From Candidatus Poribacteria bacterium (GTDB lineage Bacteria > Poribacteria > WGA-4E > WGA-3G), in contig JAJDWA010000037.1 of the NCBI GenBank assembly GCA_022825825.1, forward strand, positions 34-64,033: a stretch of 64,000 bases of DNA, written 5' to 3'. Positions 12,887-44,175 of this stretch are shown in pieces (positions within the stretch are counted from its first letter, which is position 1; every line of letters begins with the position of its first letter). The notes under the pieces were generated by a model. The model was not told where the DNA came from, searched no databases, and saw nothing but the letters and a program-made list of their open reading frames with translations. The position numbers and the translations under genes were made by a program.

Positions 12887-12911
12887 ACTATAAAGCGATC
12901 GGAGGTGATCC

Positions 12912-15972: not shown

Positions 15973-18900
15973 TTAAAGTTCGGCACTGACCGTCATCTCT
16001 AAGCGATGTTCAGGTTTGCGTTGTTTAGTTGAAAGCAAACGGTAATTGAGTCTAAATAGTAAATCAGTGAATTTGCGCAATCTATAATCCGCTGTGGCGC
16101 GCACTTCATGACTGATGCCTTCATAAAAATAGTATTGTGCAAAAGGTACACCGCCATCGCTTTTGCCGTAGCCGAGTGTATGATTAACTTCAATGCGTCC
16201 CTTACCGAGAATACTATACGTGATACGATTTTCAAAAGAGAAGGTGCGCGTCTTTGCTGTAGACTCTTCATCAAGTTGTTCTATATCGGTTGTGCGTTTG
16301 TATCCACCGGTACCGCTCCATCGGACCGCGCGGCTCAGTTCATATTGGATTTTTAACTCTGTTATCTGTTCAAATTGGCGTAAGTCAGAGATTGGTGTTG
16401 GTGGAAAGTCGTTGGAATTAGGGTTCGGCATCCCTTCCACTTCCATTGAGTCAAGTTCAGGAAAGTAGAGTTGGCTATACTTTTCAGTTTCGCGGCGTTG
16501 CTCCCAGTTTGCACCAACTGAAAAACGTTGCGTTGGATTGACTGAAAAAGCGACATCCCACGTTCGGTAATTTCGCAGCCGTTCTTGTGTATTAATCCGT
16601 CGATTGAGTGTGCGTCCTGTCCGTAGATTAACTTCAAAACTAAAAAGAGGTGAAGGAGAAAATTCAACACGATGATGTTGGTTAACCCGACCAAAAAGTG
16701 TTTGTGAACCTTGTAGGATTTGGAGCAGATAGAGAGAGAGAGTATCTTCCGCTTCTTGTTCTTCTGTCAACCATAGGCGCGTCTGGATTCTGAGTGCATT
16801 TAAGAACCACGTGAATGGCTGTCGCTTTTTAGTTGTGGGTTTTTCGTTGTCAGCGGTAGCGGCTGAGGAAAGAGCACCTCGACTCACGAAATCTGTTCTG
16901 GATCGTTGGTTTCGGGCGCGGCGGGCAAAAAATTGGCGCGGTTGGAGTCGGAGTCGAAATGCGGCGTCTACTGCTGTTGTCGGTTTGTCCCCTACATTCT
17001 GGTAAATTTTGATATATGTTCCTTCCTCTGGGTCTTCTACATATCGCAAGTCATCTAATCTGACGTAATACCCTTCGCCGGGTTGGATTCTATGTCCTGT
17101 GAGCGGGTGAATGTCAGTGTATATCTCACGACGTTGGGTTGTCAGTTTTTTATCCAATTCATAAGTGACTTCAGCGTCAATTGCACGGTTGAAAGGCGTA
17201 AATTGGATTGTTGCATCTGCTAATTGTGTTGCCACATCTGTGCCGAGTTCTGAATGCGCTTTTACTGTCCGACGTGCAAGATTTGTTTTTATATTTATCC
17301 ACTGCCCTTGCTGCGAAAAAAGACCTACTTTCCATGTTCGCGCTGTGGTAGACCGCATCCAATCAGAAATTCCTAAAGTTTCGCCATCAAGCGTCAATAA
17401 CGGTTCTTTACCAAAAGCCCGTTCCAATTCGTAACTCGTGTTAATGGATACCCATTTGAAATCAACTAAGTTAACACGTCCAGAAGTTCGGTTACGTCTG
17501 CGGTTGCGTACAGCGGTGTAATCATCAATTGAAGCGAACCGATCATAAGTGCCGACAAATTCAAAAGGAGAAAGAAGATAGGATAGACTTCCCTCTTGCC
17601 TTGATTTTCGGAAATTTTCTTCTGTGCCTGTGGTCTCCTCATTTGATTCTATGAGGGATGTACTACGATAATCATTCCAGCGAAGGTTTGGGAATTTTGC
17701 CAAAATAGAAGTTTTGTCTGTCGGTTTACGCGAAAGATCACCTTCCACAGAACTCGGTCTCCGTCCATTGTCTCTTTGATATTGCGAAGGTGGTTGGAAT
17801 AAATTTTCCGGTTGCTGGGATATAGGTGAAAAAACATTGCTTCTACTTGAACGTGGTGTGAAATTTGCCCCCCAATTGAGATTATTACGACGTGTAGTTT
17901 GCCCTTCCACTGCTGCCTCAATCGTCCTACCGCCACCTAAATCAAACCGTAGCCATTGGTACGGCAGTAATTTGAAGTCAAGATTTAACGTTTGTTCATC
18001 AGATTCCTGCGAGATAGAACTTGGATCGAACAGAAAAGCGTCCTCAAATCCTTCAGTTGTATATTGTGTCCCGTAACGATCGCGAGTGCGATTACTAAGG
18101 GACGCACCAACAGGTAAAAAACCGGCATCCATGGATCGTAGATCAAAGTTGCCTATTACTTTCGGACGCAGCTTGTTAGACCATGTAGGAAAATCCCAAT
18201 TTGTGTAGCCGATTAATTTCCAAGCTTGGTTTATATCTTTCCTGTCTACCGTAGAATACGTGTTTCTATCAACTGCACTAAAAGCGAATTCTCCATCAAT
18301 CCATGTCTGTTCGGCAAAATTCAGTCGACTCTCTAATCCCCATACCGTATGTTTCTGTGGTGGTGTAAGGAGAATCCCATCCCCATCCGGATCCAGCGTA
18401 TTTTGGCGGAGTGCGTCCAGATCGTCATCATCAAAAAGGACTAAAGCCTGCTCAGGATCATCTAAATCTGCTTCCACAGCGTAAGAAGCACCAAGCGATA
18501 ACCATTCCCCTGGAAACACGAAAACGTTATTGATACCGTATAGATTTTGTTGATATGCCCGGTCTTCAGGAATATACTCAAAGTCAACACGAATTACATC
18601 GTTACTTGTTATGAGATGCTTGCTGTTGAACTCAATAATTGGATCACCGTATTCACGGATAATGTAATCGTTGTTTTCTCCGCGCCGCATCTTCTCTCCG
18701 TTCAGCCAAACAATTTCACTCCCCGCTTTGACAATAACGAACTGATTGCCCACATCAAGCCGATATTCACTGCGTCCCTCCTCACCACGAATCACTTTGC
18801 TTGTGGATTGCCCCTTTGGCAGCGCGCTCGGAATGAGATGGAATTTGGTTCTCTCAAAATTACCTTCAACTTTGACACCTTCAAGTGCACGCGGGAAAAA

Positions 18901-19671
18901 GACAAACTCGGACGGACCTAAGGACGCATTGAAATCACCTAATGTACCTGTCACGTTCGGATGCATGATCCGAAATAATTTCTGATTGATGTCCTGGATA
19001 TCTTCAGTCATTCCCTCCGGTTGAATAGGCAAATCTTGGTCGGAAAGCATGGCAAGTACTTCAATGTTATCTGCGACGTTGCCTCGGACATTGATACGAA
19101 ACTCCTGATTTTGCGACAACGCGCGACCGCTGCCAATAGATATACCAAACGTGCGACTACCAGAATATTCTAACTGTGAAGATGGAGCTGAAGCAGGTGT
19201 ACCGGGGACTGTGGGTTCGGTTTCTAAATCAGAAGAAACATCTGGACTTGGTGCTGATTCTAATTCTACATCAAGTGGTATTCCGTAGAGGTCCCGCTTA
19301 TATATCTTTTGGAAAGTGAAAGGGATTGAACGATAAGTGATTGACCATGTTACGTCTTTCTGTGCTACGACTGATTTATCAAAGGTAATCTTACCTGATG
19401 AATAATCTATCTGGTACTCTTTCTCGCGAACAAGTATTTGACCTTTATTATCTGTTATCTTTTCACTTTCAGGAAAGATAGGCGGATATTTAACTGTCCA
19501 CGCCGCGCTGTCTGTTTCTAACCGAAAATTTTCTATCTTCTCAATTATAGAGAATGTGGGAAGTTTTAGTGGAGGGTTCTGCTTTGGGGCTTGCGTTTGT
19601 GCATCTATAAAAAAAAGAAAGCAGAAAAAAAATGAAAGGATGGAAAGTAAGATTTGTATATGCTTTGCCAT
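15973..19671 (-). CDS. Large secreted envelope protein, possibly an outer-membrane beta-barrel; function unknown
   Basis: The long ORF is trimmed to the MAKHIQILLSILSFFFCFLFFIDAQ signal peptide. The C-terminal ~600 aa show alternating hydrophobic and aromatic beta-strand patterning rich in Y/R/N/T. I recognise no family. Confidence 0.6.
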   Translation of the reverse strand: MAKHIQILLSILSFFFCFLFFIDAQTQAPKQNPPLKLPTFSIIEKIENFRLETDSAAWTVKYPPIFPESEKITDNKGQILVREKEYQIDYSSGKITFDKSVVAQKDVTWSITYRSIPFTFQKIYKRDLYGIPLDVELESAPSPDVSSDLETEPTVPGTPASAPSSQLEYSGSRTFGISIGSGRALSQNQEFRINVRGNVADNIEVLAMLSDQDLPIQPEGMTEDIQDINQKLFRIMHPNVTGTLGDFNASLGPSEFVFFPRALEGVKVEGNFERTKFHLIPSALPKGQSTSKVIRGEEGRSEYRLDVGNQFVIVKAGSEIVWLNGEKMRRGENNDYIIREYGDPIIEFNSKHLITSNDVIRVDFEYIPEDRAYQQNLYGINNVFVFPGEWLSLGASYAVEADLDDPEQALVLFDDDDLDALRQNTLDPDGDGILLTPPQKHTVWGLESRLNFAEQTWIDGEFAFSAVDRNTYSTVDRKDINQAWKLIGYTNWDFPTWSNKLRPKVIGNFDLRSMDAGFLPVGASLSNRTRDRYGTQYTTEGFEDAFLFDPSSISQESDEQTLNLDFKLLPYQWLRFDLGGGRTIEAAVEGQTTRRNNLNWGANFTPRSSRSNVFSPISQQPENLFQPPSQYQRDNGRRPSSVEGDLSRKPTDKTSILAKFPNLRWNDYRSTSLIESNEETTGTEENFRKSRQEGSLSYLLSPFEFVGTYDRFASIDDYTAVRNRRRNRTSGRVNLVDFKWVSINTSYELERAFGKEPLLTLDGETLGISDWMRSTTARTWKVGLFSQQGQWINIKTNLARRTVKAHSELGTDVATQLADATIQFTPFNRAIDAEVTYELDKKLTTQRREIYTDIHPLTGHRIQPGEGYYVRLDDLRYVEDPEEGTYIKIYQNVGDKPTTAVDAAFRLRLQPRQFFARRARNQRSRTDFVSRGALSSAATADNEKPTTKKRQPFTWFLNALRIQTRLWLTEEQEAEDTLSLYLLQILQGSQTLFGRVNQHHRVEFSPSPLFSFEVNLRTGRTLNRRINTQERLRNYRTWDVAFSVNPTQRFSVGANWEQRRETEKYSQLYFPELDSMEVEGMPNPNSNDFPPTPISDLRQFEQITELKIQYELSRAVRWSGTGGYKRTTDIEQLDEESTAKTRTFSFENRITYSILGKGRIEVNHTLGYGKSDGGVPFAQYYFYEGISHEVRATADYRLRKFTDLLFRLNYRLLSTKQRKPEHRLEMTVSAEL

Positions 19672-19702
19672 CCTTCTACCTTTCCATTTTTGAGTCCTTC
19701 CA

Positions 19703-20878
19703 TTACCGTTGTTGCAATTCTGCTTTCTTGGCATCTGATGTTGAGGTTGTCTTGAATATCACCTGAAAGATTTTAATATCCCCTGCCTCAGTGTCGGTCA
19801 CAAATATCTGTCCTCTCTGTGAAACAGCGATTCCACAAGGATTCAATAGTGTCTTCACGGTGAATTCTATAACAGTGTGTCCTTCTGATGTAAAAACCTG
19901 AATGCGTCTATTTCCACTATCTGTAACATACAAATAGTTCCAAGCGTCTACGGCAAGTCTTTTCGGTTCTTGGAACTGCCCGAGCGCACTCCCCTTCTCA
20001 CCCCACGTCCGGATTGGATTTCCACTGAAATCGTAACTCATAATGCGATGGTTACCAGTATCCACCACATACACAGTGCCATGTGGATTCACAACAAGGT
20101 CAGTTGGATTCCAAAATTGCTCTCGACTATTCCCGAAACTACCCATCGTAAGAATAGGCGCGAGGTTTCGACTAAATTGGACCCAGCGATGATTAAGGGT
20201 GTCGACTACAAAAACTTCGCCGTTCCGACCAAGACTGATACCCTCAGGCCCATCAAACTCAAAGTCTTGGGAAGTAGTCGTAATTGGATAAAAAATGCGA
20301 TGCACCAGATTGCAATACTGTACTCGGTTATTTCCTGTATCTGCAACGTAGAGGGTGTCCAAACTGAGTGCTACGTCATTAGGGAAATCAAACTCACCGT
20401 CACGCCATCCGTAACTTCCGAATTCAGCAATGAAGTGACCATTACTATCAATAACTTGCACGCGATTGTTCCCCGCGTCCGCCACGTATAGCTGCCCATA
20501 GGCATCTATAATTAGTCCCATAGGCATCAGAAACTCACCAATACCTTGCCCTGTTCTGCCGATCGTCTTAACGTAGCGAACACCTAATATTGGAGGGGTT
20601 TCTCGCTCCCGAATTGAAGGAACAAAATCTACTTTTGAAGATATTAGAGGATGCTGCGCGCTTTTCCCATTAGGTTCAGGCACAGTGCAACTTGCATAGC
20701 ATAGGAGAGAAACACAGACGAGAATAAAGCCACTGCGGGCAAACTTTATTGAAGTATTGATAAGAAAAGAAAGAAAGGAATTTGAGGAACGATCCCCTGG
20801 ATCCGGTATTGGCAGGATTAATTTTACATCAACCTCGCTGTACCTTAAATTTGAAAACAAACGTTGTCTGCTGATCAT
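19703..20878 (-). CDS. NHL-repeat beta-propeller lipoprotein
   Basis: Six NHL-type blades: YVADAGNNRVQVID, YVADTGNNRVQYC, VVDTLNHRWVQF, YVVDTGNHRIMSYD, YVTDSGNRRIQVF, FVTDTEAGDIKIF. A lipobox-like LLCYASC is present. The true start is uncertain because the ATG at 20878 overlaps the upstream gene by 50 nt. Confidence 0.8.
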   Translation of the reverse strand: MISRQRLFSNLRYSEVDVKLILPIPDPGDRSSNSFLSFLINTSIKFARSGFILVCVSLLCYASCTVPEPNGKSAQHPLISSKVDFVPSIRERETPPILGVRYVKTIGRTGQGIGEFLMPMGLIIDAYGQLYVADAGNNRVQVIDSNGHFIAEFGSYGWRDGEFDFPNDVALSLDTLYVADTGNNRVQYCNLVHRIFYPITTTSQDFEFDGPEGISLGRNGEVFVVDTLNHRWVQFSRNLAPILTMGSFGNSREQFWNPTDLVVNPHGTVYVVDTGNHRIMSYDFSGNPIRTWGEKGSALGQFQEPKRLAVDAWNYLYVTDSGNRRIQVFTSEGHTVIEFTVKTLLNPCGIAVSQRGQIFVTDTEAGDIKIFQVIFKTTSTSDAKKAELQQR

Positions 20879-21506
20879 TGAATTCGCTCGTCACACCGGG
20901 AATAATAATACGCAGATTATTAGATTTGATACTGCGTTTTGGAAAATAGAGATAGAATAATGAACTGTTTTTCGGCATAATGTTCGTCTTCTTTAAATCA
21001 TCTGTTGGTAGAACAGCATACCCCCCTTGTACACGAATAGTCTTGTCATATCGGAAAACATCTGCTGCAAATTCAGGGGGCAGATTCGGTCTATCATTCT
21101 TTTTTAAATAGAATGATAGCTGCGATTTGTCAATCTGTTTTACAATGTTGCCTGCTTGATCCAACATCTGACAATCCTCTTTTTTTAAACTGATCCAGTG
21201 ATTTGTTCTGTTGTAAATAAGAACTCCAAACGCATCAACATTTTTCACATCATTGAGTGCCACCGTCATTACGACTATTCCGTTTTCTACATAAATAACG
21301 GTGCCTGTCTGTGGCGTAATTGTTGCATCCGGATCAAAAACTGGGACTATCCGCTCTGGTCGGAAGAAATCTACGAGTCCACTCCGCATCTTTGCACATC
21401 CAGTTATAGATACAGATAGTGCAAACATCGCTAAAATCTGACAAGTCCGTATCCAAATTAAAGATGAATACTGTGTGGTATTTGTCGAATCACCGAAAAA
21501 CCTCAT
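20829..21506 (-). CDS. Hypothetical lipoprotein
   Basis: Signal peptide with lipobox (ALSVSITGC). First gene of the three-gene envelope cluster. Confidence 0.6.
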   Translation of the reverse strand: MRFFGDSTNTTQYSSLIWIRTCQILAMFALSVSITGCAKMRSGLVDFFRPERIVPVFDPDATITPQTGTVIYVENGIVVMTVALNDVKNVDAFGVLIYNRTNHWISLKKEDCQMLDQAGNIVKQIDKSQLSFYLKKNDRPNLPPEFAADVFRYDKTIRVQGGYAVLPTDDLKKTNIMPKNSSLFYLYFPKRSIKSNNLRIIIPGVTSEFNDQQTTFVFKFKVQRG

Positions 21507-21530: not shown

Positions 21531-22481
21531 TCAATTGTTATATACCAACATTGCTGCACCGACGAATCCTGCGTCATTTCCTAATTTTGCTGGAACAATT
21601 TCCATACCACCGGGAATGTCCATTGTTCGTTTAGTAAACTCTTCACGAATATGTTGAAAGAGTAGGTTTTCCCCTGCTGCAGCAATTCCTCCACCAATGA
21701 TCGCTATTTGCGGGTTAAGGATATGTGCTATAGATGTCAACGCAACAGCGATATATCTACCTGTTTCCGCCCAAATATTAAGTGCCAGTTCATCTCCCGC
21801 GGTTGCTGCTTCAGCGATTTGCTTCGGGGTCAGGACTCCCGAGTCCAAACAGGTTTTCTTCCCTTCTGCTATTTGCTGTTGTGTTCGCTCTACAATGTGT
21901 CTCGCGCCGGCGTAAGCCTCGAGACAACCGTGATTACCGCATCCACACTTACGACCATCCGGTTGCACCACCGTATGTCCTAGTTCGCCTGCTGTATTCC
22001 AACTTCCATGGTAGACCTTTCTGTTGATGACGACACCACCGCCAACACCTGTGCCGAGCGTGAGTCCTACGGCGTTTTCATAACCGACCCCCGCACCGTG
22101 ATGCAGTTCACCTAGGACCATCGCATTGACATCGTTGTCAATATAGAGTGGCAGGTCTAAGCCGCCAAGTTCTTCAGTAACATAATTCAATAGCGGGACA
22201 TCGCTCCATCCAGGAAAGTTCGGTGAAAAATGGATAACACCACTGTCAGCGATGATGAGTCCTGCCGCCCCCAAGCCGATACCGACAATTTCCTTTTTGT
22301 CTTCCTTTTCCGCTAATTCAATAATTTGGTAGATTGTCTGAGCAATACGGGTTGCTATTGCTCTTGCACCTTCATCCACACAAGTAGAAACGACCATGCG
22401 GCACGAAAGTTTACCATCTGCTGCCAACAAACCTGCTTTAATATAAGTTCCACCGAGATCAATTCCTATGCTATATTTCAT
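21531..22481 (-). CDS. ROK-family glucokinase
   Basis: N-terminal IGIDLGGTYIK ATPase motif and the ROK zinc motif CGCGNHGCLEAY. Confidence 0.88.
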   Translation of the reverse strand: MKYSIGIDLGGTYIKAGLLAADGKLSCRMVVSTCVDEGARAIATRIAQTIYQIIELAEKEDKKEIVGIGLGAAGLIIADSGVIHFSPNFPGWSDVPLLNYVTEELGGLDLPLYIDNDVNAMVLGELHHGAGVGYENAVGLTLGTGVGGGVVINRKVYHGSWNTAGELGHTVVQPDGRKCGCGNHGCLEAYAGARHIVERTQQQIAEGKKTCLDSGVLTPKQIAEAATAGDELALNIWAETGRYIAVALTSIAHILNPQIAIIGGGIAAAGENLLFQHIREEFTKRTMDIPGGMEIVPAKLGNDAGFVGAAMLVYNN

Positions 22482-22555: not shown

Positions 22556-23806
22556 CTAACCGTAGGAATTCCATTTAATACGCGCGCCATCACCAACGTT
22601 ACATATATAAATGTCAGGTTCAATGCCTGTGCGACGCGGATATTCCTTCATTACCCGGTCCTGCAACTCCTCTACAGCGTCTTGGTAGACTAAATTCACT
22701 GTACATCCCCCAAAACCTGCTCCTGTCATTCTTGCGCCGATAACACCATCAATACTTTGTGCAATATCCGTCAATATATTTAACTCATCACAACTGACTT
22801 CATAAGCATCGCGTAGACCTGTGTGTGAAGCATTCATGAGTTTGCCAAAGGTGTTTATCTCTTTCGCTGCGAGGGCATCTATAGCACTTTGCACTCGCGT
22901 GTTTTCTTCTACAACATATCTACACCTTTTTTGTGTAATCTGAGGTAGTTCTGCTTCATATTTTTTGAAATCTGCTAACGTCACATCTCTAAGTGAGGTA
23001 ATAGTAGGCATCCACTGCTGCAAAATCTCAACCCCTTTTTCACATTCAGCACGCCGCTTATTATACTCTGAAGAAGCAAGTTCACGTTTGACATTGGTAT
23101 TACAGATGACAAGCAGAATATCGGTTAAGTTGAGTGGGATCTGCTTGTATTCAAGTGAACGGCAATCTAAAAACAGCGCGTGATCTGCTTTTCCTAATAA
23201 AGAGATAGATTGGTCCATGATGCCACAGTTGACACCAGCAAATTCATTTTCTGCACGTTGACATAGCGCTGCTAACTCCATCGGGGGCAGTTGGATCAAT
23301 TCAATCTCACTATTAGAATTTATACCTGTGTTTGCTATTTCTAAGCCACATACCCCTAAAAAAGCGAGCGCTGACGCTACTTCAAGCGCAGCAGAAGAGC
23401 TAAGTCCCGCACTAATTGGGACATTTCCAGCAATTACAGCAGATATGCCGTTCAACGTGTGGCCACTTTTTCGTAAGACCTGTTCTTGTAAGAAGTGCGC
23501 AACACCCCTCAGATAATTACCCCACGGAGGTGTCTTTGCGTCCTCAATTGTCCCCAAATTGAAGGTGCATGCCTCATTCATATCTAAAGCATGAAGGTGC
23601 ACTTGGTCGTCAGAACGTTTGCGCGCAGCAATGTGGAGATATTTATCAATAGCGACAGGAAACACAAAACCGTCATTGTAATCTGTATGCTCACCGATTA
23701 GGTTAACCCTTCCTGGTGCAGACACAATGAAATCCGGTGGATGACCGAAATGTTTGTGAAATTCCTGTGCTAATCTATCGATCAAAATAGACGGTTTCTG
23801 TTCCAT
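22556..23806 (-). CDS. galK: Galactokinase
   Basis: Galactokinase signature GRVNLIGEHTDYNDGFVFP, and GHMP kinase motifs PISAGLSSSAALE and GAGFGGC. Confidence 0.92.
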   Translation of the reverse strand: MEQKPSILIDRLAQEFHKHFGHPPDFIVSAPGRVNLIGEHTDYNDGFVFPVAIDKYLHIAARKRSDDQVHLHALDMNEACTFNLGTIEDAKTPPWGNYLRGVAHFLQEQVLRKSGHTLNGISAVIAGNVPISAGLSSSAALEVASALAFLGVCGLEIANTGINSNSEIELIQLPPMELAALCQRAENEFAGVNCGIMDQSISLLGKADHALFLDCRSLEYKQIPLNLTDILLVICNTNVKRELASSEYNKRRAECEKGVEILQQWMPTITSLRDVTLADFKKYEAELPQITQKRCRYVVEENTRVQSAIDALAAKEINTFGKLMNASHTGLRDAYEVSCDELNILTDIAQSIDGVIGARMTGAGFGGCTVNLVYQDAVEELQDRVMKEYPRRTGIEPDIYICNVGDGARIKWNSYG

Positions 23807-23895: not shown

Positions 23896-26550
23896 TTAAA
23901 ACGCATTTGCCACAATAACTAAATCTTGGATATTTACAACACCATCACCATTGAGATCGGGTTCTGCTTCGCCAAAGGCATTCGCGACAGCAACTAAATC
24001 TAAGATATTCACAATGCCATCGTCATTGACATCCGCATCGGACCGAAATTCGGTGAGATTTAATCCAGCGAGTGGACTAAAATCGGTAGCTGGATTGTTC
24101 CTAATCCACAACCCTTCCAAATTTGTAAGTCCAGCAAGCGGGTTAAAGTCTTCAATCTGGTTATTTGAAAGACTTAACTCCCGAAGTGTCTTCAGTCCCG
24201 CAAGTGGACTAATATCCGAAACCTTACTATTTATCAGAGTGAGCTGCTCTAAGTTGATGAGATTCGCCAACGGAGTGATGTCAAGCGTTGGCGTTTCTGG
24301 AGAGAGATTTGAAAGATACAGATTTTCAAGAGTAGTCAAGTTAGTAAGCGGGCGCAGGTCTGTTATTGGATTCCCACTCAGGCGTAAAGCGGCGAGATTT
24401 GTTGCAAACTCTAAGCCTGTTATATTAACAATGCCTTTGTGGTCTGCTCTCAGATTACGCACAAGCCATAGCATCTTCTCTTTTGTCAAGTGTGCCGCTG
24501 CGGGCAGCCCGAGTGCCTCTCGAACTGCGGCGCGCAATGCCGCGTCAGGCATCCATTCTGATGCCAATTCTGGTGGGGTCTCTATCGCAAGGTCTAACAC
24601 TTTGACGGTACCATCAGCAGTTATACCGGGTTCCTGTTTCAGATACATCTCGCCATCTAAATCTGGGATGATGTGTGTTGTGCTTGTGATACCACTTTCT
24701 ACACCAATGGCTTGCGTTGAGAACTGAATTTTTTGTGCCTTCCCGCTGCGGTTGTAAACTGCCCAGCCGTTGGTGAACTCTCGAACAAAGAGTCCTTCAC
24801 AGTTGTCACAGAGTTGTCCCTTTTTTCCAATAGGTTGTCCAAGATCAGCATTCCAGAAATCATACCAGAAATTATGGGAGTCCATCCACTTGTTCCAACT
24901 ACCGGCTGGATAAGTTAAGCGAACGTAGCCATCAGAGTGCGTCAGCCCTCTTGTTGTAAACATACGCATTCGTCTTTGATTGTCCGGACTGTCCGGTGGT
25001 TGATCCGGCAAAAGGAATCCTTCGCCCCAGTTAACAGTTGGTTGTCGCAAGTGTTTTTCATTCCAGAGTAATGTCTCATCGAGCACTTGAAGCAGTTTAT
25101 ATGTGCCGCCAGCAGTTCCTTTATAGTCTTCACCCGGTTCCATCGCGGAACCATTGACGTATTCTGCATACTGAACAGGTTTATTTCGCCCCGCATTTAC
25201 AATGATTAGGAAGTCATCACGCACCTGCTCTCGGACTCCTCGTAAAATACGGTTGCGTGCTTCAATAATTAATTCATAAGCAAACCAGTCTCCGAATGAT
25301 GCATCACCACCAAACCCATCCAATAGAATACCATCAAAAATACCACATTCGGAAAACCCTACAATCCTTTCAATAAGCAAATCCTGTAAATCTGGATTTA
25401 AAAGGTTCATCATATACTCACCATTTGAATTTTGGACTATTCTACCTTCACTATCTCGAAGCCAAAAATCAGAATCAACTGGAAAAGCCCTGTTGTTTGG
25501 TGGTAGATGGTTATGAATACGTACTTCCCTAAAAAATAGCATATTGGGGTTACGTTGAAGTAGTTGTTGATGGATTGCTTTTGCCTCTTCAATATCGCCT
25601 GAAAGTTGAGTTCTTAAGCCAAATGGTTCTGTTTGTGATGTCTTCCAGGACAACCCCAAAGATGTACCATAATTAAAGTCATAGTTGGTAGATTCTTCGC
25701 CATCGGGATGTATTCCTACTATTGATGGAAAATTTCTATTTTTAATGCGTGATTCAACTGAATCACGCAGTGGAATGAGATCACACACCTCATCATAGTG
25801 GAACTCTATAAGATTTAAAGAGAGTAGTGGGCTTATATCTCTCGTCCAATTTTTCTGAATCCATAGCTTTTCGAGATTTGTCAATTCGGCAAGCAGACTA
25901 AAGTCCTCAATGTGATTATTTGCAATATGTAATTCCCGAAGTTTCTTGAGTCCCACCAGTGGTGTGATATCCGTAATCCCGTTCCCCGCCAGAGAGAGCA
26001 CCTCTAAGTTGATAAGATTCGTCAACGGACGCAGATCAAGATTTGTCGGATTGGCGGGAAAGTGCCAAAAATGTAGCTCCACGAGTTGTGTCAAATTTGC
26101 CAGAGGACGTAGGTCTGTTATAGGATTTCTACTCAGGTGCAATACTCTGAGCTTCGTCAGGCCCGCCAGCGGTGTGATATCGGAAATTCCATTCTCCACC
26201 AGAGAGAGTCTGTCTAAGTTTATTAGATTTGCCAATGGGCGCAGGTTTGTTATGGGATTCTTATCCAAATGTAATACTCTGAGTTTCGTCGCAAACTCTA
26301 ATCCAGCTATGTCGGTGATACCGCTATCCCGCACATTGAGATCCTTTAGCCGGGGCATCTTATCCTTCGTCAAGAGTTCGTCTGCCGGTAGTTTTAAAGC
26401 CTCGCGCACTGCTTGCCGCAAGTTTGGATCAGGCATCCATTCTTCAGCATCTTCTGCGTAGATAAGAGTGTTGTAGCCAAGTATGCCTATAACAGATACA
26501 AACAATATCCGAAACCATAACGATTTACAACATGTTTTTTTGATTTTCAT
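23896..26550 (-). CDS. Secreted LRR - central TIM-barrel-like (possible glycoside-hydrolase-like) - LRR - dockerin protein
   Basis: Signal peptide, then two homologous LRR blocks (LxLxxNxIxDIxPLxxLxxL). Each block is introduced by EWMPD..LR.AVREAL.LP. The C-terminus has tandem dockerin-type Ca-binding repeats DVNDDGIVNILDLVAVANAF and DLNGDGVVNIQDLVIVANAF. The central-domain assignment is weak. Confidence 0.75.
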   Translation of the reverse strand: MKIKKTCCKSLWFRILFVSVIGILGYNTLIYAEDAEEWMPDPNLRQAVREALKLPADELLTKDKMPRLKDLNVRDSGITDIAGLEFATKLRVLHLDKNPITNLRPLANLINLDRLSLVENGISDITPLAGLTKLRVLHLSRNPITDLRPLANLTQLVELHFWHFPANPTNLDLRPLTNLINLEVLSLAGNGITDITPLVGLKKLRELHIANNHIEDFSLLAELTNLEKLWIQKNWTRDISPLLSLNLIEFHYDEVCDLIPLRDSVESRIKNRNFPSIVGIHPDGEESTNYDFNYGTSLGLSWKTSQTEPFGLRTQLSGDIEEAKAIHQQLLQRNPNMLFFREVRIHNHLPPNNRAFPVDSDFWLRDSEGRIVQNSNGEYMMNLLNPDLQDLLIERIVGFSECGIFDGILLDGFGGDASFGDWFAYELIIEARNRILRGVREQVRDDFLIIVNAGRNKPVQYAEYVNGSAMEPGEDYKGTAGGTYKLLQVLDETLLWNEKHLRQPTVNWGEGFLLPDQPPDSPDNQRRMRMFTTRGLTHSDGYVRLTYPAGSWNKWMDSHNFWYDFWNADLGQPIGKKGQLCDNCEGLFVREFTNGWAVYNRSGKAQKIQFSTQAIGVESGITSTTHIIPDLDGEMYLKQEPGITADGTVKVLDLAIETPPELASEWMPDAALRAAVREALGLPAAAHLTKEKMLWLVRNLRADHKGIVNITGLEFATNLAALRLSGNPITDLRPLTNLTTLENLYLSNLSPETPTLDITPLANLINLEQLTLINSKVSDISPLAGLKTLRELSLSNNQIEDFNPLAGLTNLEGLWIRNNPATDFSPLAGLNLTEFRSDADVNDDGIVNILDLVAVANAFGEAEPDLNGDGVVNIQDLVIVANAF

Positions 26551-26627: not shown

Positions 26628-27392
26628 TCAATCAATTGTAGCGAAAAACTTCAATAACCGCGCTAACACCGTGGGCAACTCCAGGCGTGGAATATAGCAG
26701 TCTACACTAATGTCTGGAGTACGTGAGTTTAGTTCGCGATTCTTTTCAGGGAGAAGTTGTTCTTCAGGTGCATGTAAAGCTGGTTGTGGTTGAAATCGAG
26801 ATGCATTTTCTAATCGTGATGCACACTCTGCTATAACGATTTCACCAACAGGCAGATATGGTGCAAACTGTCCAATACTCGTTTCAGTCAAAATAGTTAA
26901 ATGTGGCAGTGATTTTTCCGCTAATTCCTCTAACTGTAGAAACAGTGGCACAATTTCAGAAAAGGAAATTTGCGATTCAACCGGACTCGCCGTGAAAATA
27001 GAAAGCAGAGGAATTGATTCTTTCAACGCACGCCCAATTGCTTCAGAAAATACCTGCAAATGTTGCTGTAGAAGGGGAGAATCTGGGTGCAAAATAAACA
27101 AACTGACCGTATAGCCGGCAATATCCTCTTCAGTAGCAAGAATATCAATTGTAGACTCTGTAGGCTCACCTGAAAATCCATCAGCGGTGTCAGGAGCATT
27201 CTCATCCATAAGAAGCTTTAGGCGATTTTCAATAGATAAAGGAAATAATTCTTTACACTTTGGGCAGATAAAACCGTTTCGTTCTAATTCTCCTCGGAAA
27301 GACACCTCATTACAATACGTGCATTTGTGCCATAAACCGATACTTTCCTCTGCTATTTCGGCGTTTCGCGTAGTTTCCATATTTTGATCCAT
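26628..27392 (-). CDS. AccD-like zinc-ribbon protein with degenerate carboxyltransferase motifs
   Basis: GLWHKCTYCNEVSFRGELERNGFICPKCKELFPLSIENRLKLLMDE aligns with E. coli AccD [46 protein letters not shown]. The remainder is colinear, but the glycine-rich motifs GGSMG, SGGARMQE and TMGGV are replaced by DSPLL, ASPVESQ and SIGQF. Confidence 0.7.
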   Translation of the reverse strand: MDQNMETTRNAEIAEESIGLWHKCTYCNEVSFRGELERNGFICPKCKELFPLSIENRLKLLMDENAPDTADGFSGEPTESTIDILATEEDIAGYTVSLFILHPDSPLLQQHLQVFSEAIGRALKESIPLLSIFTASPVESQISFSEIVPLFLQLEELAEKSLPHLTILTETSIGQFAPYLPVGEIVIAECASRLENASRFQPQPALHAPEEQLLPEKNRELNSRTPDISVDCYIPRLELPTVLARLLKFFATID

Positions 27393-27451: not shown

Positions 27452-27796
27452 TTAAAGAAAACTTGCAATTGCCTCTGCTTCTGTATCATATCGGTCAAAT
27501 ATCGTTACAAGTTTAGCCATAATAATAAGACTTCTAATGTTTCCACCGATGTTGAGGAGAACCACTCTGCCATTATTGCGTCTGATAGATGCATAGGCAG
27601 CAACAATTACACCCAATCCAGAACTATCCATCATTTGGACACGTTCCATATTTAAAATCATAAATACTGGTTCACCACTGGCCTCTTGAATTTGGTTATC
27701 AATGATGTTTTTCAGTGCAATTGTATTAGGGCCAACAAGGTTACCCTCAATATCTAAAATAGTAACACTCCCTTTATGTCGTAGGTTGATTTGCAT
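27452..27796 (-). CDS. STAS-domain anti-sigma-factor antagonist (SpoIIAA/RsbV-like)
   Basis: Starts at MQINL, with the RBS GAAGGAG upstream. The conserved phosphorylatable-serine motif MDSSGLG is present. Confidence 0.85.
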   Translation of the reverse strand: MQINLRHKGSVTILDIEGNLVGPNTIALKNIIDNQIQEASGEPVFMILNMERVQMMDSSGLGVIVAAYASIRRNNGRVVLLNIGGNIRSLIIMAKLVTIFDRYDTEAEAIASFL

Positions 27797-27938: not shown

Positions 27939-28367
27939 CTACAAATTCGGGCTTTGCTTAAATTTAACCATCTTGACAATGGTGCCTTCAGCCTCGTAGC
28001 TCACTTCGTCCATGCACGCTTCCATCAGGAAAAGGCCGCGTCCACTGCTTTTCAGTAGATTTTCTGGTTCAAGTGGATTCGCAACATTTTCGCGCTGAAA
28101 CCCAGGCCCTTCATCAGTTACAACAATCGTGAGTTTCTCATCTTCAATAAGAAACTCAAATGTCGCCGTCTTATTAATATCTTCTTTATTGCCGTGTTTG
28201 ATTGCGTTTGTCCCTGCTTCAATGACAGCTAGGTTCACATGCTCCTGCGCTTCTTCATCAAAATTCATCTCTCTCAGAATATCACTGCAAACAGTGTCGA
28301 GTAGATAAATCAACTGCATTGTGCTTGGGAGAGAAAGGAAAATTCTCCATTGGGTTTTCTCGCCCAC
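27939..28367 (-). CDS. RsbW/SpoIIAB-like anti-sigma serine kinase (HATPase_c)
   Basis: N-box AVIEAGTNAIKHG, G1 box VTDEGPGF, G2 box SGRGLFLM. GTG start with a GGAG RBS. Confidence 0.85.
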   Translation of the reverse strand: MGEKTQWRIFLSLPSTMQLIYLLDTVCSDILREMNFDEEAQEHVNLAVIEAGTNAIKHGNKEDINKTATFEFLIEDEKLTIVVTDEGPGFQRENVANPLEPENLLKSSGRGLFLMEACMDEVSYEAEGTIVKMVKFKQSPNL

Positions 28368-28439: not shown

Positions 28440-29720
28440 CTAAGTTGAAGTTGCCTTCGCATCAGTGCGTTTAATTACAACAACGGCGCGGTCATCCTTG
28501 AGTTGTGTCGTTCCGCTAAATTCTTTCAATTCCGTTTGAAGAACATCACAAAGTGCTTCAGCGGATAGTGTTAGATTTTTTGAGAAGCAGTCAATCAAAC
28601 GTTCTTCACCATAGAAGTTATTTGGTGTTTGCCCCTCAGTTTCGGTTACCCCATCGGTATAAAGTAAAAGGACATCTCCTGGAGATAATAGACAGGTTTC
28701 TGACGAAAAAGTTGCGATATCAAACGCGCCTATTAGCATTCCACCAGTTTCAAGTAACTCCACTTGATGTTTACTTTTTTCGGTTTGTTTAGGGCCTTCT
28801 AAGCCTTTAATAAAATGAATTGGTGGACAGTGTCCTCCATTAGAATAAGTAAACCTTCCCGTGTCTATTTCTAATATACCGTATACCATTGTGGCAAATT
28901 GTTCAAGGTCTGTGTTATGAAAAAGTAAAGTATTAATACGTTTTAAAACCGTTGCGGGCAAATGCGCGTTTGGCATTTGCCCTGAATCCGCTTCATTACT
29001 TAATAGACGTGAAGCTGTCTGGATCATTACCATTAAAAGTGCAGCTGGAATTCCATGTCCTTTTACATCGCCTAACACGATGCCGAGACGTGTGTCGCTA
29101 AGTGGGATAAAATCATAAAAGTCACCAGAAACAGAGGTTGAACTTCGGAACATGGTTGCGAAGTCGAAACCGGTAAAGGTAGGCGGCTTCTCTGGAAGTA
29201 ACTTGAGTTGAATTTCGGCAGCTGCTTGGAGATGCGAACCGAGTTCAGCTACACCTGCCTCGCTGAAACTTTCTCCCATCGCATTGATCAATGGATTGAT
29301 GTATTTTACAGGGCGTGTTCGCCCTAAAACTGCGTTAATCCGAGCAGTCACCTCACGCAAATCAAAAGGTTTTGTAATATAGTCATCCCCACCAACTTCT
29401 AATCCGCGTAATTTGTCCACAGTTTGTGATTTCGCTGTCAACCATAGGACGGGAATTGCATTTGTTTCACTATCTGCTTTTAGTTTCTCAATTACTTGTA
29501 AGCCATCCATCTGCGGCATCATAACGTCAAGCAGAATCAGGTCCGGTTGGTCCGCTTTAGCAAGTTGGATCCCATTTATACCGTTATTGGCGGTGATGAC
29601 ATGGAATCCATCAGAAGCCAAACTCATTTCGAGTAGAGCCAGGATATCAGTATCATCATCAATTACCAAAATGGTTTCAGCTGTTTGTGCCGTTGGAGAC
29701 ACAAAAATTGTTTCGGACAT
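28440..29720 (-). CDS. Response-regulator receiver fused to a PP2C/SpoIIE phosphatase (RsbU-like)
   Basis: Receiver motifs ILVIDDD, DLILLDVMMPQMDG and TAKS. PP2C motifs SGDFYDF, GDVKGHGIPAAL and LLLYTDGVTE. Confidence 0.9.
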   Translation of the reverse strand: MSETIFVSPTAQTAETILVIDDDTDILALLEMSLASDGFHVITANNGINGIQLAKADQPDLILLDVMMPQMDGLQVIEKLKADSETNAIPVLWLTAKSQTVDKLRGLEVGGDDYITKPFDLREVTARINAVLGRTRPVKYINPLINAMGESFSEAGVAELGSHLQAAAEIQLKLLPEKPPTFTGFDFATMFRSSTSVSGDFYDFIPLSDTRLGIVLGDVKGHGIPAALLMVMIQTASRLLSNEADSGQMPNAHLPATVLKRINTLLFHNTDLEQFATMVYGILEIDTGRFTYSNGGHCPPIHFIKGLEGPKQTEKSKHQVELLETGGMLIGAFDIATFSSETCLLSPGDVLLLYTDGVTETEGQTPNNFYGEERLIDCFSKNLTLSAEALCDVLQTELKEFSGTTQLKDDRAVVVIKRTDAKATST

Positions 29721-29764: not shown

Positions 29765-30421
29765 TTACAGCACGCCATCGCTGTTTTCCTTTCGCCTGAT
29801 CTCTATTGTTGGAAGGACGCCTTCTCCCGTAACGTGCCAAACAGGATCCTGAAGAAACAGTTGTCTTATACGATCAATGAAGACTGTGTCTTTCGAGGCA
29901 ATAGCCATCTCGAAGGCAGCTCGTCTTATGTAAGGGTCCTTGTGTTGACAGAATTGGTCAGCGATTTCTTTGGCGTCATTTGGATAAAGACGGGCCAAGC
30001 TGAGGAGTGCTCGCCGCTTGCAGTAGTCGTCTGGGTCTTGAAGCCCTTTTTTTAAGAGATTTTCCGCCTTTCGACCTGCACAGCTAAGAACATCATACAC
30101 TTGCCATCGCGTACTTGCGTATGCCGACTTTGTCAGTAAAAGCAATACGTCCCAACATCGATCTATGTGGGTTCTTGCATAATCAGCAAGATGTTCTCCT
30201 TCTTTCGAAATGGCCCAGCATTTGTCAATATACTGGATATCCTCTCGTTTTGGGGATTGTCGGGTCATTTCGTAAATAGCGGCTTCCATCAAAAAACCCC
30301 ACTTGGGATAATCTTCCTGCCAACCCTCATCGTTTTGGTCTGCCGTGATCGCCCACTCTTTCCAATCTCTATATTTTCTTTTTAGATCGTTTGCCATCAT
30401 ATCCTCTACTGCTGTGTCCAC
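29765..30421 (-). CDS. Hypothetical protein with HEAT-like repeats
   Basis: Helical repeats such as LKKGLQDPDDYCKRRALLSLARL and CQHKDPYIRRAAFEMAI. Sits between the histidine kinase and the RR-PP2C gene. Confidence 0.5.
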   Translation of the reverse strand: MDTAVEDMMANDLKRKYRDWKEWAITADQNDEGWQEDYPKWGFLMEAAIYEMTRQSPKREDIQYIDKCWAISKEGEHLADYARTHIDRCWDVLLLLTKSAYASTRWQVYDVLSCAGRKAENLLKKGLQDPDDYCKRRALLSLARLYPNDAKEIADQFCQHKDPYIRRAAFEMAIASKDTVFIDRIRQLFLQDPVWHVTGEGVLPTIEIRRKENSDGVL

Positions 30422-30472: not shown

Positions 30473-32962
30473 CTATGATAAAAACGGAATCCAAAATTGG
30501 AAGTTGCAACCTTTATCATTTTCGCCTACATCTACCCAGATTTTCCCTTTATGTGCTTCAACGAATCCGCGTGCGATTGGAAGACCTAAGCCGGTACCGC
30601 CCTGTTCCCGAGTTTGAATATTACTAAGTTGTCGGAATTTGTCAAAGACATCTTCACGGTCTTGAGCAGGGATACCAGGGCCAGTGTCTATCACCTCAAC
30701 ATGAATGCCATCGTTTTCATCCCTAACACTATCTTCTTTTATAGGACAATCCTTACGGGACATTTTCACGTTTACTTCGCCGTTTGACGGCGTGAATTTG
30801 ATGGCATTTCCTATCAGATTTGTTAAAATTTGACCGAGATATTCCGCATCCCCGTTTAGATCGGGTAAATCAGGTTGAACGCTTAAATCCAATTTGATTG
30901 TCTTTTCGTCGGCTTGTGGTTTGAGTTCCTCAATCCGTTGCTGCGCAATCTCAGCGAGGTCCACTGGCTCAAGTTTCATTACAATCCGTCCCGCTTCAAT
31001 ACGTGAAATATCAAGCAGATCATTAATCATTGTGGCGAGCCGTTCCGACTGGCGATGTGCGCGGGTCAAACTCTGTTGTTGGACTTCGTTAATCGGTCCA
31101 GCTTTTCCATCCAGTATCAGTGAGATAAATCCGATGATTGAAGTCAACGGAGTTCTCAATTCATGGGAGACAAGTGCTACAAAATCAGATTTCATCTTAT
31201 CAATTTCATGTTCACGCGTTATATCATCAAAAACATAGACCATTCCCGCCATCTCGGTATTTTCATTAGAAGAACTATCAGTATCTGCGGTTGTGCTAAC
31301 CGAAGAAAATTGGCTTGTCACAACACGAAGAATACGATTTTCACCTTCTTGGTCTAAGTTGATTTCAACTGTTGTTCGCGTATCCTGTCCGTGTGTATTT
31401 GCCAAAACAGTCAAATTCGTGATACGTAGCAATTCGGTAAATCGATCAGGAAACTGTGATGTCTCATTAAAGTTAAGCAGATGCTTAGCAGCGGGGTTAA
31501 AGTAAAGGATTCGGTCGCGAACATCAACCACAATGAGTCCTTCACCGAGGCAATCAACAATAGTCGTCATCTGTTGTTCGGCACTAATGAGTTTTTCAAC
31601 AGCAATTTTTAAATTACGGTGCATATCGTTGAATTCTTGTGCCAACATCCCGACTTCATTCTTACTGTGGATTGAGATAAGTTCAGCTTCTTCATTTTGG
31701 TACCACTGCATATTTGCTATCTGTTTGCGGACTTGATCAGACTCTTCTTGGACAACATCTTTTGCTTCTTGGCCGATACGTTTTGCTACTTGTGCGAGCT
31801 GCATAACCGGCTGAGAGATACGTTTTGCCACCGCATAAGCGATCGGTATAACTATTACACATGATAGAATGGTAACCCACAAGACATACTCGTTCAGTTT
31901 CACAACCCCTGCGTAAGCTTCGGAGCTTGGATATGAAACAAAAACAATCCAGTTACTGAAATTTGGCTCGGTTTTCCACGATTTCCATCTTGCTGGTCGT
32001 GTACTCGCCCATCCATAAACACGAGATTCACCGAAACGATCTACTTCACCTGAGGCTTCATAGCCGTAGTATTTTCCCTCCTCCGCTCCCCTTTTCGCTT
32101 TTTTCGCTTCTATTATTGCTCTCATTGTAGCATTTTCCGTTGATATCACATCACCTATCTTGTACTTACTTTGTGGTGAAGCGGCAATTACTTTTCCAGA
32201 TTGAGTTGTCAGAATGGTATGTGCCTTTTGCATGTCTGGTAGCAATTCAACAACATTGGAAAGTTCCGGCACTAAAAGAACAAGTCTGAGTACACCGACA
32301 GCTATGTATCCAGTGTCAGAAGACGATCGCGGACTTTTCCCGCGAATCGGAAATGCCATTGAAAGAGTATACGCACTGTGCTCCTGATCATAGGTGACAT
32401 CCTCAATGTATCGAGAACCTTCACTGTTGTTGAAAGCTCTATCCCACCAAACTTGGTCATCAACCCGATACGGTAGATCCCTTCTCGGATCGAAATCTAA
32501 TTTTGAATTGTTTGAGCGGAGAACATACCCATCAGCATTTGTAATTGTAACCTCACTTCCATTTCTACGGATGCGTCTTCTGTTCCTGCTACCAGTATAA
32601 GTTTCCAACAACCGAATACTACCCCCTAAATTGCTCCACACTTCAAAAAAAACATTATAATTTCCTTTAGCATTGTTAGATTTTATAACTGGATCTCGAA
32701 TCTCTTTTTGAATATTCGGTATCTCCGCAAGGATTTTTCGCATCCTCTCTGAAATAGAGCGATCCGCTTCGTTGAGTTTTGCTTGTGCTAATAAAGCCAT
32801 ACCTTCACCAACGCTGCTTCTCAAAGCGTTTTCACCCAACCTTTTGATTGTCAGTGAAACAATTAATAACGGCGTAAGCGAAACAAGCAGAAACAGAAGA
32901 ACTTGTTGGCTGCGCAATCCCATCTTAAACCGAGTACGCATTGCAGGTTTTTTCTCTTTCAT
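30473..32962 (-). CDS. Sensor histidine kinase (TM - Cache-like ectodomain - TM - HAMP - PAS - HisKA - HATPase)
   Basis: Two TM segments flank a ~330-aa ectodomain. H-box FVALVSHELRTPLTSIIGF, N-box LIGNAIKFT, G-boxes DTGPGI and GTGLGLPIARG. Confidence 0.9.
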   Translation of the reverse strand: MKEKKPAMRTRFKMGLRSQQVLLFLLVSLTPLLIVSLTIKRLGENALRSSVGEGMALLAQAKLNEADRSISERMRKILAEIPNIQKEIRDPVIKSNNAKGNYNVFFEVWSNLGGSIRLLETYTGSRNRRRIRRNGSEVTITNADGYVLRSNNSKLDFDPRRDLPYRVDDQVWWDRAFNNSEGSRYIEDVTYDQEHSAYTLSMAFPIRGKSPRSSSDTGYIAVGVLRLVLLVPELSNVVELLPDMQKAHTILTTQSGKVIAASPQSKYKIGDVISTENATMRAIIEAKKAKRGAEEGKYYGYEASGEVDRFGESRVYGWASTRPARWKSWKTEPNFSNWIVFVSYPSSEAYAGVVKLNEYVLWVTILSCVIVIPIAYAVAKRISQPVMQLAQVAKRIGQEAKDVVQEESDQVRKQIANMQWYQNEEAELISIHSKNEVGMLAQEFNDMHRNLKIAVEKLISAEQQMTTIVDCLGEGLIVVDVRDRILYFNPAAKHLLNFNETSQFPDRFTELLRITNLTVLANTHGQDTRTTVEINLDQEGENRILRVVTSQFSSVSTTADTDSSSNENTEMAGMVYVFDDITREHEIDKMKSDFVALVSHELRTPLTSIIGFISLILDGKAGPINEVQQQSLTRAHRQSERLATMINDLLDISRIEAGRIVMKLEPVDLAEIAQQRIEELKPQADEKTIKLDLSVQPDLPDLNGDAEYLGQILTNLIGNAIKFTPSNGEVNVKMSRKDCPIKEDSVRDENDGIHVEVIDTGPGIPAQDREDVFDKFRQLSNIQTREQGGTGLGLPIARGFVEAHKGKIWVDVGENDKGCNFQFWIPFLS

Positions 32963-33045: not shown

Positions 33046-33381
33046 TTACGAAAAAGCGTTGAGCGCGGCTTCCTTAGTTTCGTACACCTCTAAAATTGAC
33101 GTAAGACGCGTAACTTCTAATATACTACTAACAGTTTTTTGTGGATTTAGCAGCACCAATTTTCCCCCCGATCTTTGCAAAATTTGCATGGTGACAATAA
33201 TGACGCCAAGTGCAGTACTGTCAAGGAGTGGGACGTTCTTCAGATCAATAATCAGTTTGTTATTCCCATTTTGCAGCTGCTGTTCTATTTCTTTGCGGAA
33301 TTCTGTTACTGTATTGCCAATAATTTTCCCTTGCACGTGGACAACTGCCGTGTTTACAGCGTCCGTTGTAATCTCAAACAT
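33046..33381 (-). CDS. Second STAS-domain anti-sigma-factor antagonist
   Basis: Starts at MFEIT, with the RBS GAAGGAG upstream. The conserved motif is LDSTALG, with Ser-Thr at the phosphosite. Confidence 0.8.
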   Translation of the reverse strand: MFEITTDAVNTAVVHVQGKIIGNTVTEFRKEIEQQLQNGNNKLIIDLKNVPLLDSTALGVIIVTMQILQRSGGKLVLLNPQKTVSSILEVTRLTSILEVYETKEAALNAFS

Positions 33382-33473
33382 TACATAAAACTCCTTCACC
33401 GGCGAATTGCTATTGCCGTACATACTAAATCATCTGCGTGAGCGTGATGATAAAAGAAAAATTACCCGGTGTA

Positions 33474-44159: not shown

Positions 44160-44175
44160 GAAAAGTATAAGTAAA

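Follow-up and report, generated by a model that had tools for sequence, protein, structure and literature searches.

We describe here an unusual gene in a 64,000-nt window (the whole stretch of DNA that was analysed) of contig JAJDWA010000037.1 from Candidatus Poribacteria bacterium (GCA_022825825.1), whose coordinates are used throughout (Table 1). The gene encodes a homolog of AccD, the carboxyltransferase beta subunit of acetyl-CoA carboxylase (ACC), from which the catalytic glycine loops have been lost, and it stands next to the genes of a partner-switching module. On the minus strand the gene order is gidA, gidB, a first STAS gene (STAS1), a sensor histidine kinase, a HEAT-repeat protein, a receiver domain fused to a PP2C phosphatase (REC-PP2C), an RsbW-like kinase, a second STAS gene (STAS2), the AccD-like gene, an LRR/dockerin protein, galK and a ROK kinase. 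Translation of the AccD-like protein likely starts at Met5 of the mechanically called open reading frame (ORF), at position 27380, which would give a protein of 250 residues; the 250-residue form is identical to the database protein P0001, and a start at Met5 is also the family consensus. Among the window ORFs of at least 150 aa there is no accA, nor any other ACC or fab gene, which agrees with the initial annotation of this DNA, made from the sequence alone, in that no accA lies nearby. Promoter and terminator scans around the gene gave matches no commoner than in shuffled sequence, and an Rfam scan identified no RNA elements in or near the operon.

The only Pfam match in the AccD-like protein is Zn_ribbon_ACC (PF17848; residues 21–46, 27.9 bits against a cutoff of 24.5), with no match to Carboxyl_trans (PF01039); PF17848 is also the only precomputed Pfam domain of its relatives, and the accD model TIGR00515 scored 52 bits against a cutoff of 317, covering residues 5–66 only. 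The homology to AccD was seen with other searches to extend over the rest of the protein. A phmmer search of the PDB matched E. coli AccD (2f9y_B, 8uxz_D) with E-values of ~3e-15 in two stretches (residues 3–66 and 115–247) and a third AccD, 9m70_A, over residues 118–250, and tblastn with E. coli AccD as query aligned its residues 7–280 to the gene at 25.6% identity (E 6.6e-14). An hhalign comparison of a profile of 47 family members with a profile of 21 canonical AccDs gave a probability of 99.9% (E 2.1e-32, 229 columns) and paired residues 19–252 of the AccD-like protein with residues 22–281 of E. coli AccD. The AlphaFold2 (AF2) model of the protein, with a mean predicted local distance difference test score (pLDDT) of 77.6 and a predicted TM-score (pTM) of 0.75, has the AccD fold: a Foldseek search of the PDB returned as its top matches the AccD beta-subunit chains 2f9y_B, 9a4k_A, 2f9i_B and 8uz2 (E ~1e-9, TM ~0.6), and the next structural matches were to other biotin-dependent carboxyltransferases. 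The initial annotation had called the protein a full-length AccD homolog with an N-terminal C4 zinc ribbon like that of E. coli AccD and a colinear remainder. The ribbon is borne out by the PF17848 match and by four cysteines that are invariant in the family, and the colinearity by the hhalign and tblastn alignments, which run throughout residues 19–252; homolog is likewise correct, but the protein is not strictly full length, as deletion has removed ~30 residues corresponding to E. coli AccD 70–100 and there is no C-terminal tail.

The catalytic loops of AccD have been lost from this protein. In E. coli AccD the glycine-rich elements are FMGGSMG (129–135), SGGARMQE (162–169) and TMGGVSAS (202–209), of which G204/G205 in the last are what we take to be the oxyanion hole. 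In alignments made with MAFFT, HMMER and hhalign the elements lie opposite gaps of three columns or residues other than glycine in the AccD-like protein, whose degenerate core retains LPHxTxLTE, GE..IAE, VDCYIPR and the C-terminal helix while all three glycine loops are absent. Across 98 family members the six columns of the catalytic glycines (E. coli G131/G132, G163/G164 and G204/G205) have glycine at a frequency of 0–0.27, and the commonest residue in each reaches 0.2–0.5 as against a family mean of 0.64, with some of the columns deleted; LPHITVLTE and GE..IAE are invariant in the same 98 members. Based on these gapped and unconserved columns, selection on the loops no longer acts. At a broader scale, ~20 of the 31 positions that are invariant in the canonical AccD set are lost and ~10 survive (the four cysteines, R60, D215 as Glu, A219, E220, D258 and R263). 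The replacement of all three glycine motifs, as first proposed, therefore stands in that the columns are gapped or variable, with the qualification that one glycine of the window protein, G173 in SIGQ, aligns with E. coli G204; this column is glycine in 27% of the family and unconserved. The profile-profile alignment, together with the lack of conservation in the 98 members, indicates that the catalytic glycines are absent and not merely shifted.

The AccD-like gene is under purifying selection. A protein search recovered 98 intact clusters (41–100% identity), all of 240–260 aa with the zinc ribbon as the sole Pfam domain, and every named cluster among them belongs to Candidatus Poribacteria. 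A scan of one genome per species identified 80 loci, of which 76 have Poribacteria in their titles and two are titled 'uncultured bacterium'; many are on complete chromosomes (e.g., OZ241980.1, OZ244563.1, OX638351.1, OY763324.1 and OZ242325.1), and the ORF is intact at all 80. The ratio of nonsynonymous to synonymous substitution rates (dN/dS), computed by the method of Nei and Gojobori (NG86) from 18 pairs at ~78% identity, is 0.153 for this gene, and its neighbors gave 0.155 (STAS), 0.087 (RsbW-like), 0.10 (REC-PP2C) and 0.10 (GalK). Thirty-nine columns are invariant in the family, including D227, D231, Y233, R236 and a C-terminal FF, and in the zinc ribbon the invariant residues are the four cysteines, W21, R38 and N39. 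Part of the 39 falls in a further motif, QPALHAPEEQ, which is confined to the marine poribacterial group and stands where AccD has its GPRVIEQT region; all of its residues are invariant except L206, which is nearly so, and it forms a loop of pLDDT ~50–60 in the AF2 model, from which we consider it a candidate docking motif. The family is also strongly acidic, with a median isoelectric point (pI) of 4.6 (range 4.3–5.7) compared to 7.6 for E. coli AccD. The intact clusters, the low dN/dS and the invariant motifs together argue that this is not a decaying pseudogene, and the earlier suggestion of a catalytically dead AccD retained for some role gains support from the dN/dS and from the invariant family-specific motifs.

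The adjacency of the gene to partner-switching genes is near-invariant. In marine Poribacteria the same-strand order is histidine kinase, REC-PP2C, RsbW, STAS, AccD-like, galK and ROK kinase, and across the 80 species-level loci the histidine kinase is present in 74, REC-PP2C in 76, the RsbW-like kinase in 78, STAS in 79, galK in 79 and the ROK kinase in 76; the gaps in these counts are contig ends, with the sole exception of locus L049, to which we return below. The conserved linkage to RsbW and STAS genes that would be expected from the initial annotation is thus present in marine loci (78/80 and 79/80, respectively) and also in the divergent members described below. A median of 64 nt separates STAS2 from the AccD-like gene, and the median distance onward to galK is 78 nt. 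In 66 of the 80 loci galK begins, in the same orientation, within 200 nt of the AccD-like gene, so that the latter is usually not the last on its strand and is possibly co-transcribed with galK. Its description as the last gene of the operon consequently applies only loosely. In the window the gene of the 884-aa LRR/GHL15/dockerin protein is inserted before galK; a comparable LRR gene occupies this place at one of the 80 loci (L006).

The components of the switch are intact and, judged by their domains and motifs, look competent. STAS2 has matches to PF01740 and TIGR00377, and its phospho-site reads DSSG in 73 of 79 orthologs and DSTG in the other six. The RsbW-like kinase matches PF13581 at 95 bits, with sub-threshold matches to the RsbW equivalogs, and has its N-box and G1 box in 78 of 78 sequences, while the phosphatase has a complete SpoIIE/PP2C domain behind its receiver domain.

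More divergent sub-branches of the family, in nine independent contexts (L083–L088 and L090–L092), put the linkage to a stricter test and have the same association. In six of these (L083, L085, L086, L087, L090 and L091) the order is STAS, histidine kinase, REC-PP2C, RsbW, one to three STAS genes and then the AccD-like gene, and the position of STAS1 in the window recurs in all of them but L091. In L088 RsbW, STAS and the AccD-like gene are found at a contig end, and in L084 STAS and the AccD-like gene lie behind an IS605-type insertion, an arrangement shared by L094, which is probably from the same organism. The module of L092, downstream of gidB-parA-parB, is the most reduced, as only STAS and RsbW precede the AccD-like gene, whose start codon directly follows the rsbW stop. 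In the classical order of such operons, rsbV-rsbW-sigB and spoIIAA-spoIIAB-sigF, the sigma factor is third, and the STAS-RsbW-AccD-like order of L092 matches this, the AccD-like gene taking the place of the sigma factor. We identified no sigma-factor gene inside the module in any context examined. The genes downstream vary among the divergent sub-branches, e.g., MalK-type ABC ATPases, galK or another GHMP kinase, NTP-transferases, an M24 peptidase, an Rrf2 regulator and an NHL protein, and in L087 and L091 the MalK-type ATPase gene overlaps the AccD-like stop. We also observed a trio of genes downstream of the AccD-like gene in the window (15973–21506, minus strand), encoding an NHL-repeat protein and two proteins, of 225 and 1253 aa, that have no Pfam match, with homologs of 35–53% identity in L086 (9092–10776) and L088 (4725–8621). 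In L087, from a hot-spring metagenome-assembled genome (MAG; GCA_026004875.1), accB and accC are found at 1–1473 on the same strand, ~6 kb upstream of the AccD-like gene and just before the module; accB/accC beside the module were seen in this lineage only, and they indicate a heteromeric-type biotin carboxylase in at least that lineage.

Table 1. Features of the partner-switching region and of the AccD-like protein (window coordinates; listed in minus-strand gene order)
Feature	Coordinates	Strand	Basis or remark
STAS1, first STAS gene of module	33046..33423	(-)	between gidB and histidine kinase
Sensor histidine kinase, HAMP-PAS-HisKA-HATPase_c	30473..32962	(-)	presumed input to REC-PP2C
HEAT-repeat protein	29765..30421	(-)	lineage-specific insertion, 5/80 related loci
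Receiver fused to PP2C (SpoIIE-type) phosphatase	28440..29720	(-)	domain libraries
RsbW/SpoIIAB-like serine kinase (HATPase_c_2)	27939..28367	(-)	N-box and G1 box present
STAS2, anti-sigma-antagonist-type, 114 aa from Met29 of mechanical ORF	27452..27796	(-)	DSSG phospho-site
AccD-like protein, predicted non-catalytic	26628..27392	(-)	mechanical ORF 254 aa, intact; homology and model
C4 zinc ribbon of AccD-like protein, aa 21-46	27255..27332	(-)	Pfam, alignment
Degenerate carboxyltransferase (crotonase-fold) core, aa 84-251	26640..27143	(-)	alignment and AF2 model
QPALHAPEEQ motif, aa 203-212	26757..26786	(-)	alignment, AF2 model
LRR / GHL15 / dockerin protein	23896..26550	(-)	between AccD-like gene and galK; outside conserved unit
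Galactokinase (galK)	22556..23806	(-)	usual immediate downstream neighbor, 79/80 loci
ROK-family sugar kinase	21531..22481	(-)	usual second downstream neighbor, 76/80 loci

To place the family among AccDs we searched the whole of a set of 1.84 billion representative proteins with a profile, which revealed a graded series from the poribacterial family to ordinary AccDs. In a column-based count, ~35 representative clusters have 0–2 of the six glycines, fully canonical AccDs have 6/6, and a few other representatives, unlinked to the switch, are intermediate; in a rough neighbor-joining tree the glycine-less proteins group as a single clade, within which several sub-branches diverge deeply. The few named members of this clade are from MAGs labelled Candidatus Poribacteria, from several environments, with one 'bacterium' and one 'Deltaproteobacteria bacterium'. 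Invariant throughout the clade are the zinc-ribbon cysteines, the P of LPL, the D of LGD, and the D and R of IDxYVxR. Of the proteins identified by a metagenome scan with a profile of the divergent clade, 79 were ordinary AccDs and a single one (L094) belonged to the family. A basal relative, P0127, keeps three of the six glycines and is not linked to STAS or RsbW; being unlinked to switch genes, it marks the boundary of the family. The neighbors of the P0127 gene are UbiB/ABC1 kinase and P450 genes. Together with P0138, P0158, P0146, P0166, P0213 and P0228 (and locus L093), it is one of a set of AccD-like proteins outside the linked clade with partial glycine loss (1–3 of 6), which may be independent cases of AccD degeneration. 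Annotations of family members differ between databases: they are labelled 'hypothetical protein' at NCBI, and P0006, P0067, P0114, P0254, P0259 and P0175 are labelled 'acetyl-CoA carboxylase carboxyl transferase subunit beta' at JGI/IMG, so that metabolic reconstructions based on annotation could count a probable non-enzyme as accD. Among the canonical AccD representatives ranked by likeness of their zinc ribbon to that of the variant, there was no poribacterial name among those looked up. A 309-aa AccD group (P0099/P0346), considered as the canonical AccD of Poribacteria, was rejected as a protein search showed it to belong to Acidobacteriota.

We propose that the AccD-like protein is a catalytically inactive paralog of AccD that serves as the regulated partner or output of the histidine kinase/REC-PP2C/RsbW/STAS switch, a reading to which we assign a probability of roughly one half. 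We infer that the protein would bind RsbW or STAS physically, and the direction of the switch and its downstream target are put forward here in the same conditional sense. In this scheme the HAMP/PAS histidine kinase would sense a signal and phosphorylate the receiver of REC-PP2C, the phosphatase of which would dephosphorylate STAS at its DSSG serine; STAS without phosphate would capture the RsbW-like kinase, and the AccD-like protein, in the classical place of the sigma factor, would thereby be released (or conversely bound). The free protein would then act through the zinc ribbon and crotonase-fold core that it has retained from AccD, plus the lineage-specific invariant loop, and its most economical target would be AccA or the ACC complex, where it could be a decoy subunit that tunes the supply of malonyl-CoA relative to the sugar activation encoded downstream. 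Stated in full, this more specific version would have an inactive ACC subunit standing in for the sigma factor of a partner switch, such that the released AccD-like protein replaces AccD at AccA and shuts down or re-localizes the committed step of fatty-acid synthesis, in coordination with the downstream sugar-kinase genes; this is speculative and, taken as a whole, we would sooner expect it to be wrong than right by some distance.

Several observations weigh against the proposed role in the switch, or against ACC as its target, and need to be considered along with the other roles that the protein might have. Synteny across genomes covers the whole neighborhood between gidA-gidB and the NHL-repeat gene: gidB is upstream in L083, L085, L091 and L092, and both L091 and the window have recR and an M28 peptidase before gidB. 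Some of the adjacency may therefore reflect phylogenetic inertia. In addition, L049 has the AccD-like gene and galK with no switch module upstream, and is the sole marine poribacterial locus with sufficient upstream sequence yet without partner-switching genes, although it is a short, low-coverage MAG contig and may be a rearrangement or chimera. (The genes that precede the AccD-like gene and galK there, at 1–7000, encode RNase E/G, L21, an OmpA-family protein and GuaA.) Both the synteny, which reaches well past the module on both flanks, and L049 would suit a protein of unrelated role that is placed beside the switch by frozen gene order and has no functional tie to it. We consider this improbable, as HEAT, LRR, MalK, NTP-transferase, M24 and Rrf2 genes have been gained and lost, both at the two flanks and between the histidine kinase and PP2C genes, around a trio of RsbW, STAS and AccD-like genes that stays contiguous, the AccD-like gene of L092 still abuts rsbW in a module that is both reduced and reordered, and basal P0127, in which three of the six glycines remain, is unlinked; contiguity that persists despite surrounding insertions, losses and one re-ordering argues for a functional tie. 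A further point is that the genes found repeatedly downstream have to do with sugars (galK, ROK kinase, MalK-type ATPase and NTP-transferases), and based on this the output may be carbohydrate metabolism and not ACC, the two being equally open. The same carbon and sugar metabolism genes are compatible with the protein as an input to the switch, its degenerate core binding acetyl- or malonyl-CoA without turnover and reporting carbon status to a switch that acts on an unlinked target. The core fold is kept with high model confidence, and acetyl-CoA is known to modulate a non-catalytic activity of the E. coli carboxyltransferase (PMC2831308), but the active-site loops have either been deleted or vary, no conserved pocket residues are identifiable, and the position of the gene, as seen in L092, fits a target, unlike known input modules; on these grounds we think a sensing role unlikely.

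The zinc ribbon raises a different alternative, that the protein is a regulator which binds mRNA or DNA, with the switch governing how the downstream sugar-kinase genes or the acc genes are expressed. Throughout the degenerate clade there is no variation in the ribbon cysteines and the residues that flank them, and the E. coli carboxyltransferase binds accA/accD mRNA through its zinc domain (PMC2831308). However, catalysis and structure also depend on the zinc domain in E. coli, so that conservation of the domain is not specific to such a role, and the acidity of the family (median pI 4.6 versus 7.6 for E. coli AccD) weakens the hint of nucleic-acid binding given in the initial annotation; we would be surprised if the protein worked in this way. 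Finally, the protein could be a highly divergent but still working AccD beta subunit, possibly the only accD of its genome. The naming of several members as carboxyl transferase beta subunits by JGI is in line with this, and neither the ranked AccD representatives that were looked up nor literature searches yielded a canonical accD of Poribacteria, a point that also counts against our proposal of an inactive paralog. With three catalytic loops missing and their columns unconserved in the family, a TIGR00515 score of 52 against the cutoff of 317, no Pfam Carboxyl_trans match, and the loss of ~20 of 31 positions invariant in canonical AccDs, we nonetheless regard an active enzyme as very improbable.

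Like AccD (E. coli 2F9Y_B; TIGR00515), the AccD-like protein has a C4 zinc ribbon at its N-terminus and a crotonase-fold domain after it. The two proteins are colinear over residues 19–252 and have in common LP(H/Y)I(T/S)VLT, LG(D/E)..IAE and (V/I)D..(I/V).R; unlike AccD, it is without FMGGSMG, SGGARMQE and the TMGG oxyanion loop, is acidic, falls below curated cutoffs, and is encoded in a signalling operon and not in a housekeeping context such as beside folC. The module resembles rsbV-rsbW-sigB and spoIIAA-spoIIAB-sigF of B. subtilis in having a STAS protein with a DSSG serine, a kinase of the RsbW/SpoIIAB-type (HATPase_c_2) and a PP2C phosphatase, and differs from these classical operons in its lack of a sigma factor, its enzyme-derived third partner, the histidine kinase input by way of the REC-PP2C fusion, and a second STAS gene before the kinase gene. 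Partner switches that do not act on sigma factors are known, namely Anabaena HenR/All4160, P. aeruginosa HsbR-HsbA and V. fischeri SypE-SypA (10.64898/2026.04.08.717354; PMC6482189; PMC10120452; PMC8256260), and switches that control a biosynthetic enzyme instead of a sigma factor are a recent finding (10.64898/2026.04.08.717354; review PMC8256260). These three have a like signalling logic, but none has been reported with an ACC-derived protein. For a decoy subunit, the closest functional analogy is to the plant BADC proteins, inactive paralogs of the biotin carboxyl carrier protein (BCCP) that regulate heteromeric ACC (PMC12706156); the analogy is by inference only, and the BADC proteins differ in being derived from BCCP and not from the carboxyltransferase beta subunit, in belonging to another kingdom, and in having no link to partner switching. 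The E. coli carboxyltransferase, a translational repressor through the AccD zinc finger (PMC2831308), likewise combines a conserved zinc ribbon with a non-catalytic regulatory activity of a carboxyltransferase subunit, but it is an active enzyme and near neutral, whereas the AccD-like protein is acidic and predicted to be without catalysis.

Full-text literature searches for partner-switching with acetyl-CoA carboxylase, or for AccD with pseudoenzyme, identified no reports. Pseudoenzyme paralogs and non-sigma partner switches are each already known, and it is their combination, and the family itself, that appear to be undescribed. Partner-switching modules are among the commonest bacterial signalling devices, and most orphan modules, i.e., those with no sigma factor, are without a known output; here a candidate output is conserved, easily recognized and encoded in the operon. 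If it does act on ACC, it would be the first bacterial dead ACC subunit serving as a regulator, and would form a direct connection between the sensing of the environment and the allocation of lipid and carbon in Poribacteria, which are dominant uncultivated sponge symbionts. A decoy at AccA, if true, would amount to a signal-controlled post-translational brake on lipid synthesis, a bacterial counterpart of plant BADC that is conserved across a phylum of uncultivated sponge symbionts.

The window has other unusual genes. Four tandem paralogous ORFs of ~1000 aa each (3186–15926, plus strand) have an N-terminal extracytoplasmic function (ECF) sigma-70 domain, with regions 2 and 4, fused to ~800 aa of beta-propeller-type sequence (BNR/Asp-box, Sortilin-Vps10-like and DUF6242). 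On the minus strand, a stop-free ORF of 1430 codons (47030–51322) encodes an ECF sigma domain (residues 31–180), a full FtsZ (211–519) and a DnaE-like PHP/polymerase III alpha/HHH region (553–1428), the last of which has no Met of its own and is missing the OB region normally found at the C-terminus; the ORF is either a genuine triple fusion or an artefact of assembly or reading. A further region of the same strand (43676–45440) contains a large signal recognition particle (SRP) RNA (43716–43981) and six tRNA genes (four Ser, Ala and Arg). ARAGORN called a permuted transfer-messenger RNA at 43676–44160, which is probably false as it overlaps the SRP RNA and a tRNA-Ser. Eukaryote-like repeats are found in a 702-aa WD40 protein (36458–38566, minus strand), as they are in the LRR/GHL15/dockerin protein next to the AccD-like gene.

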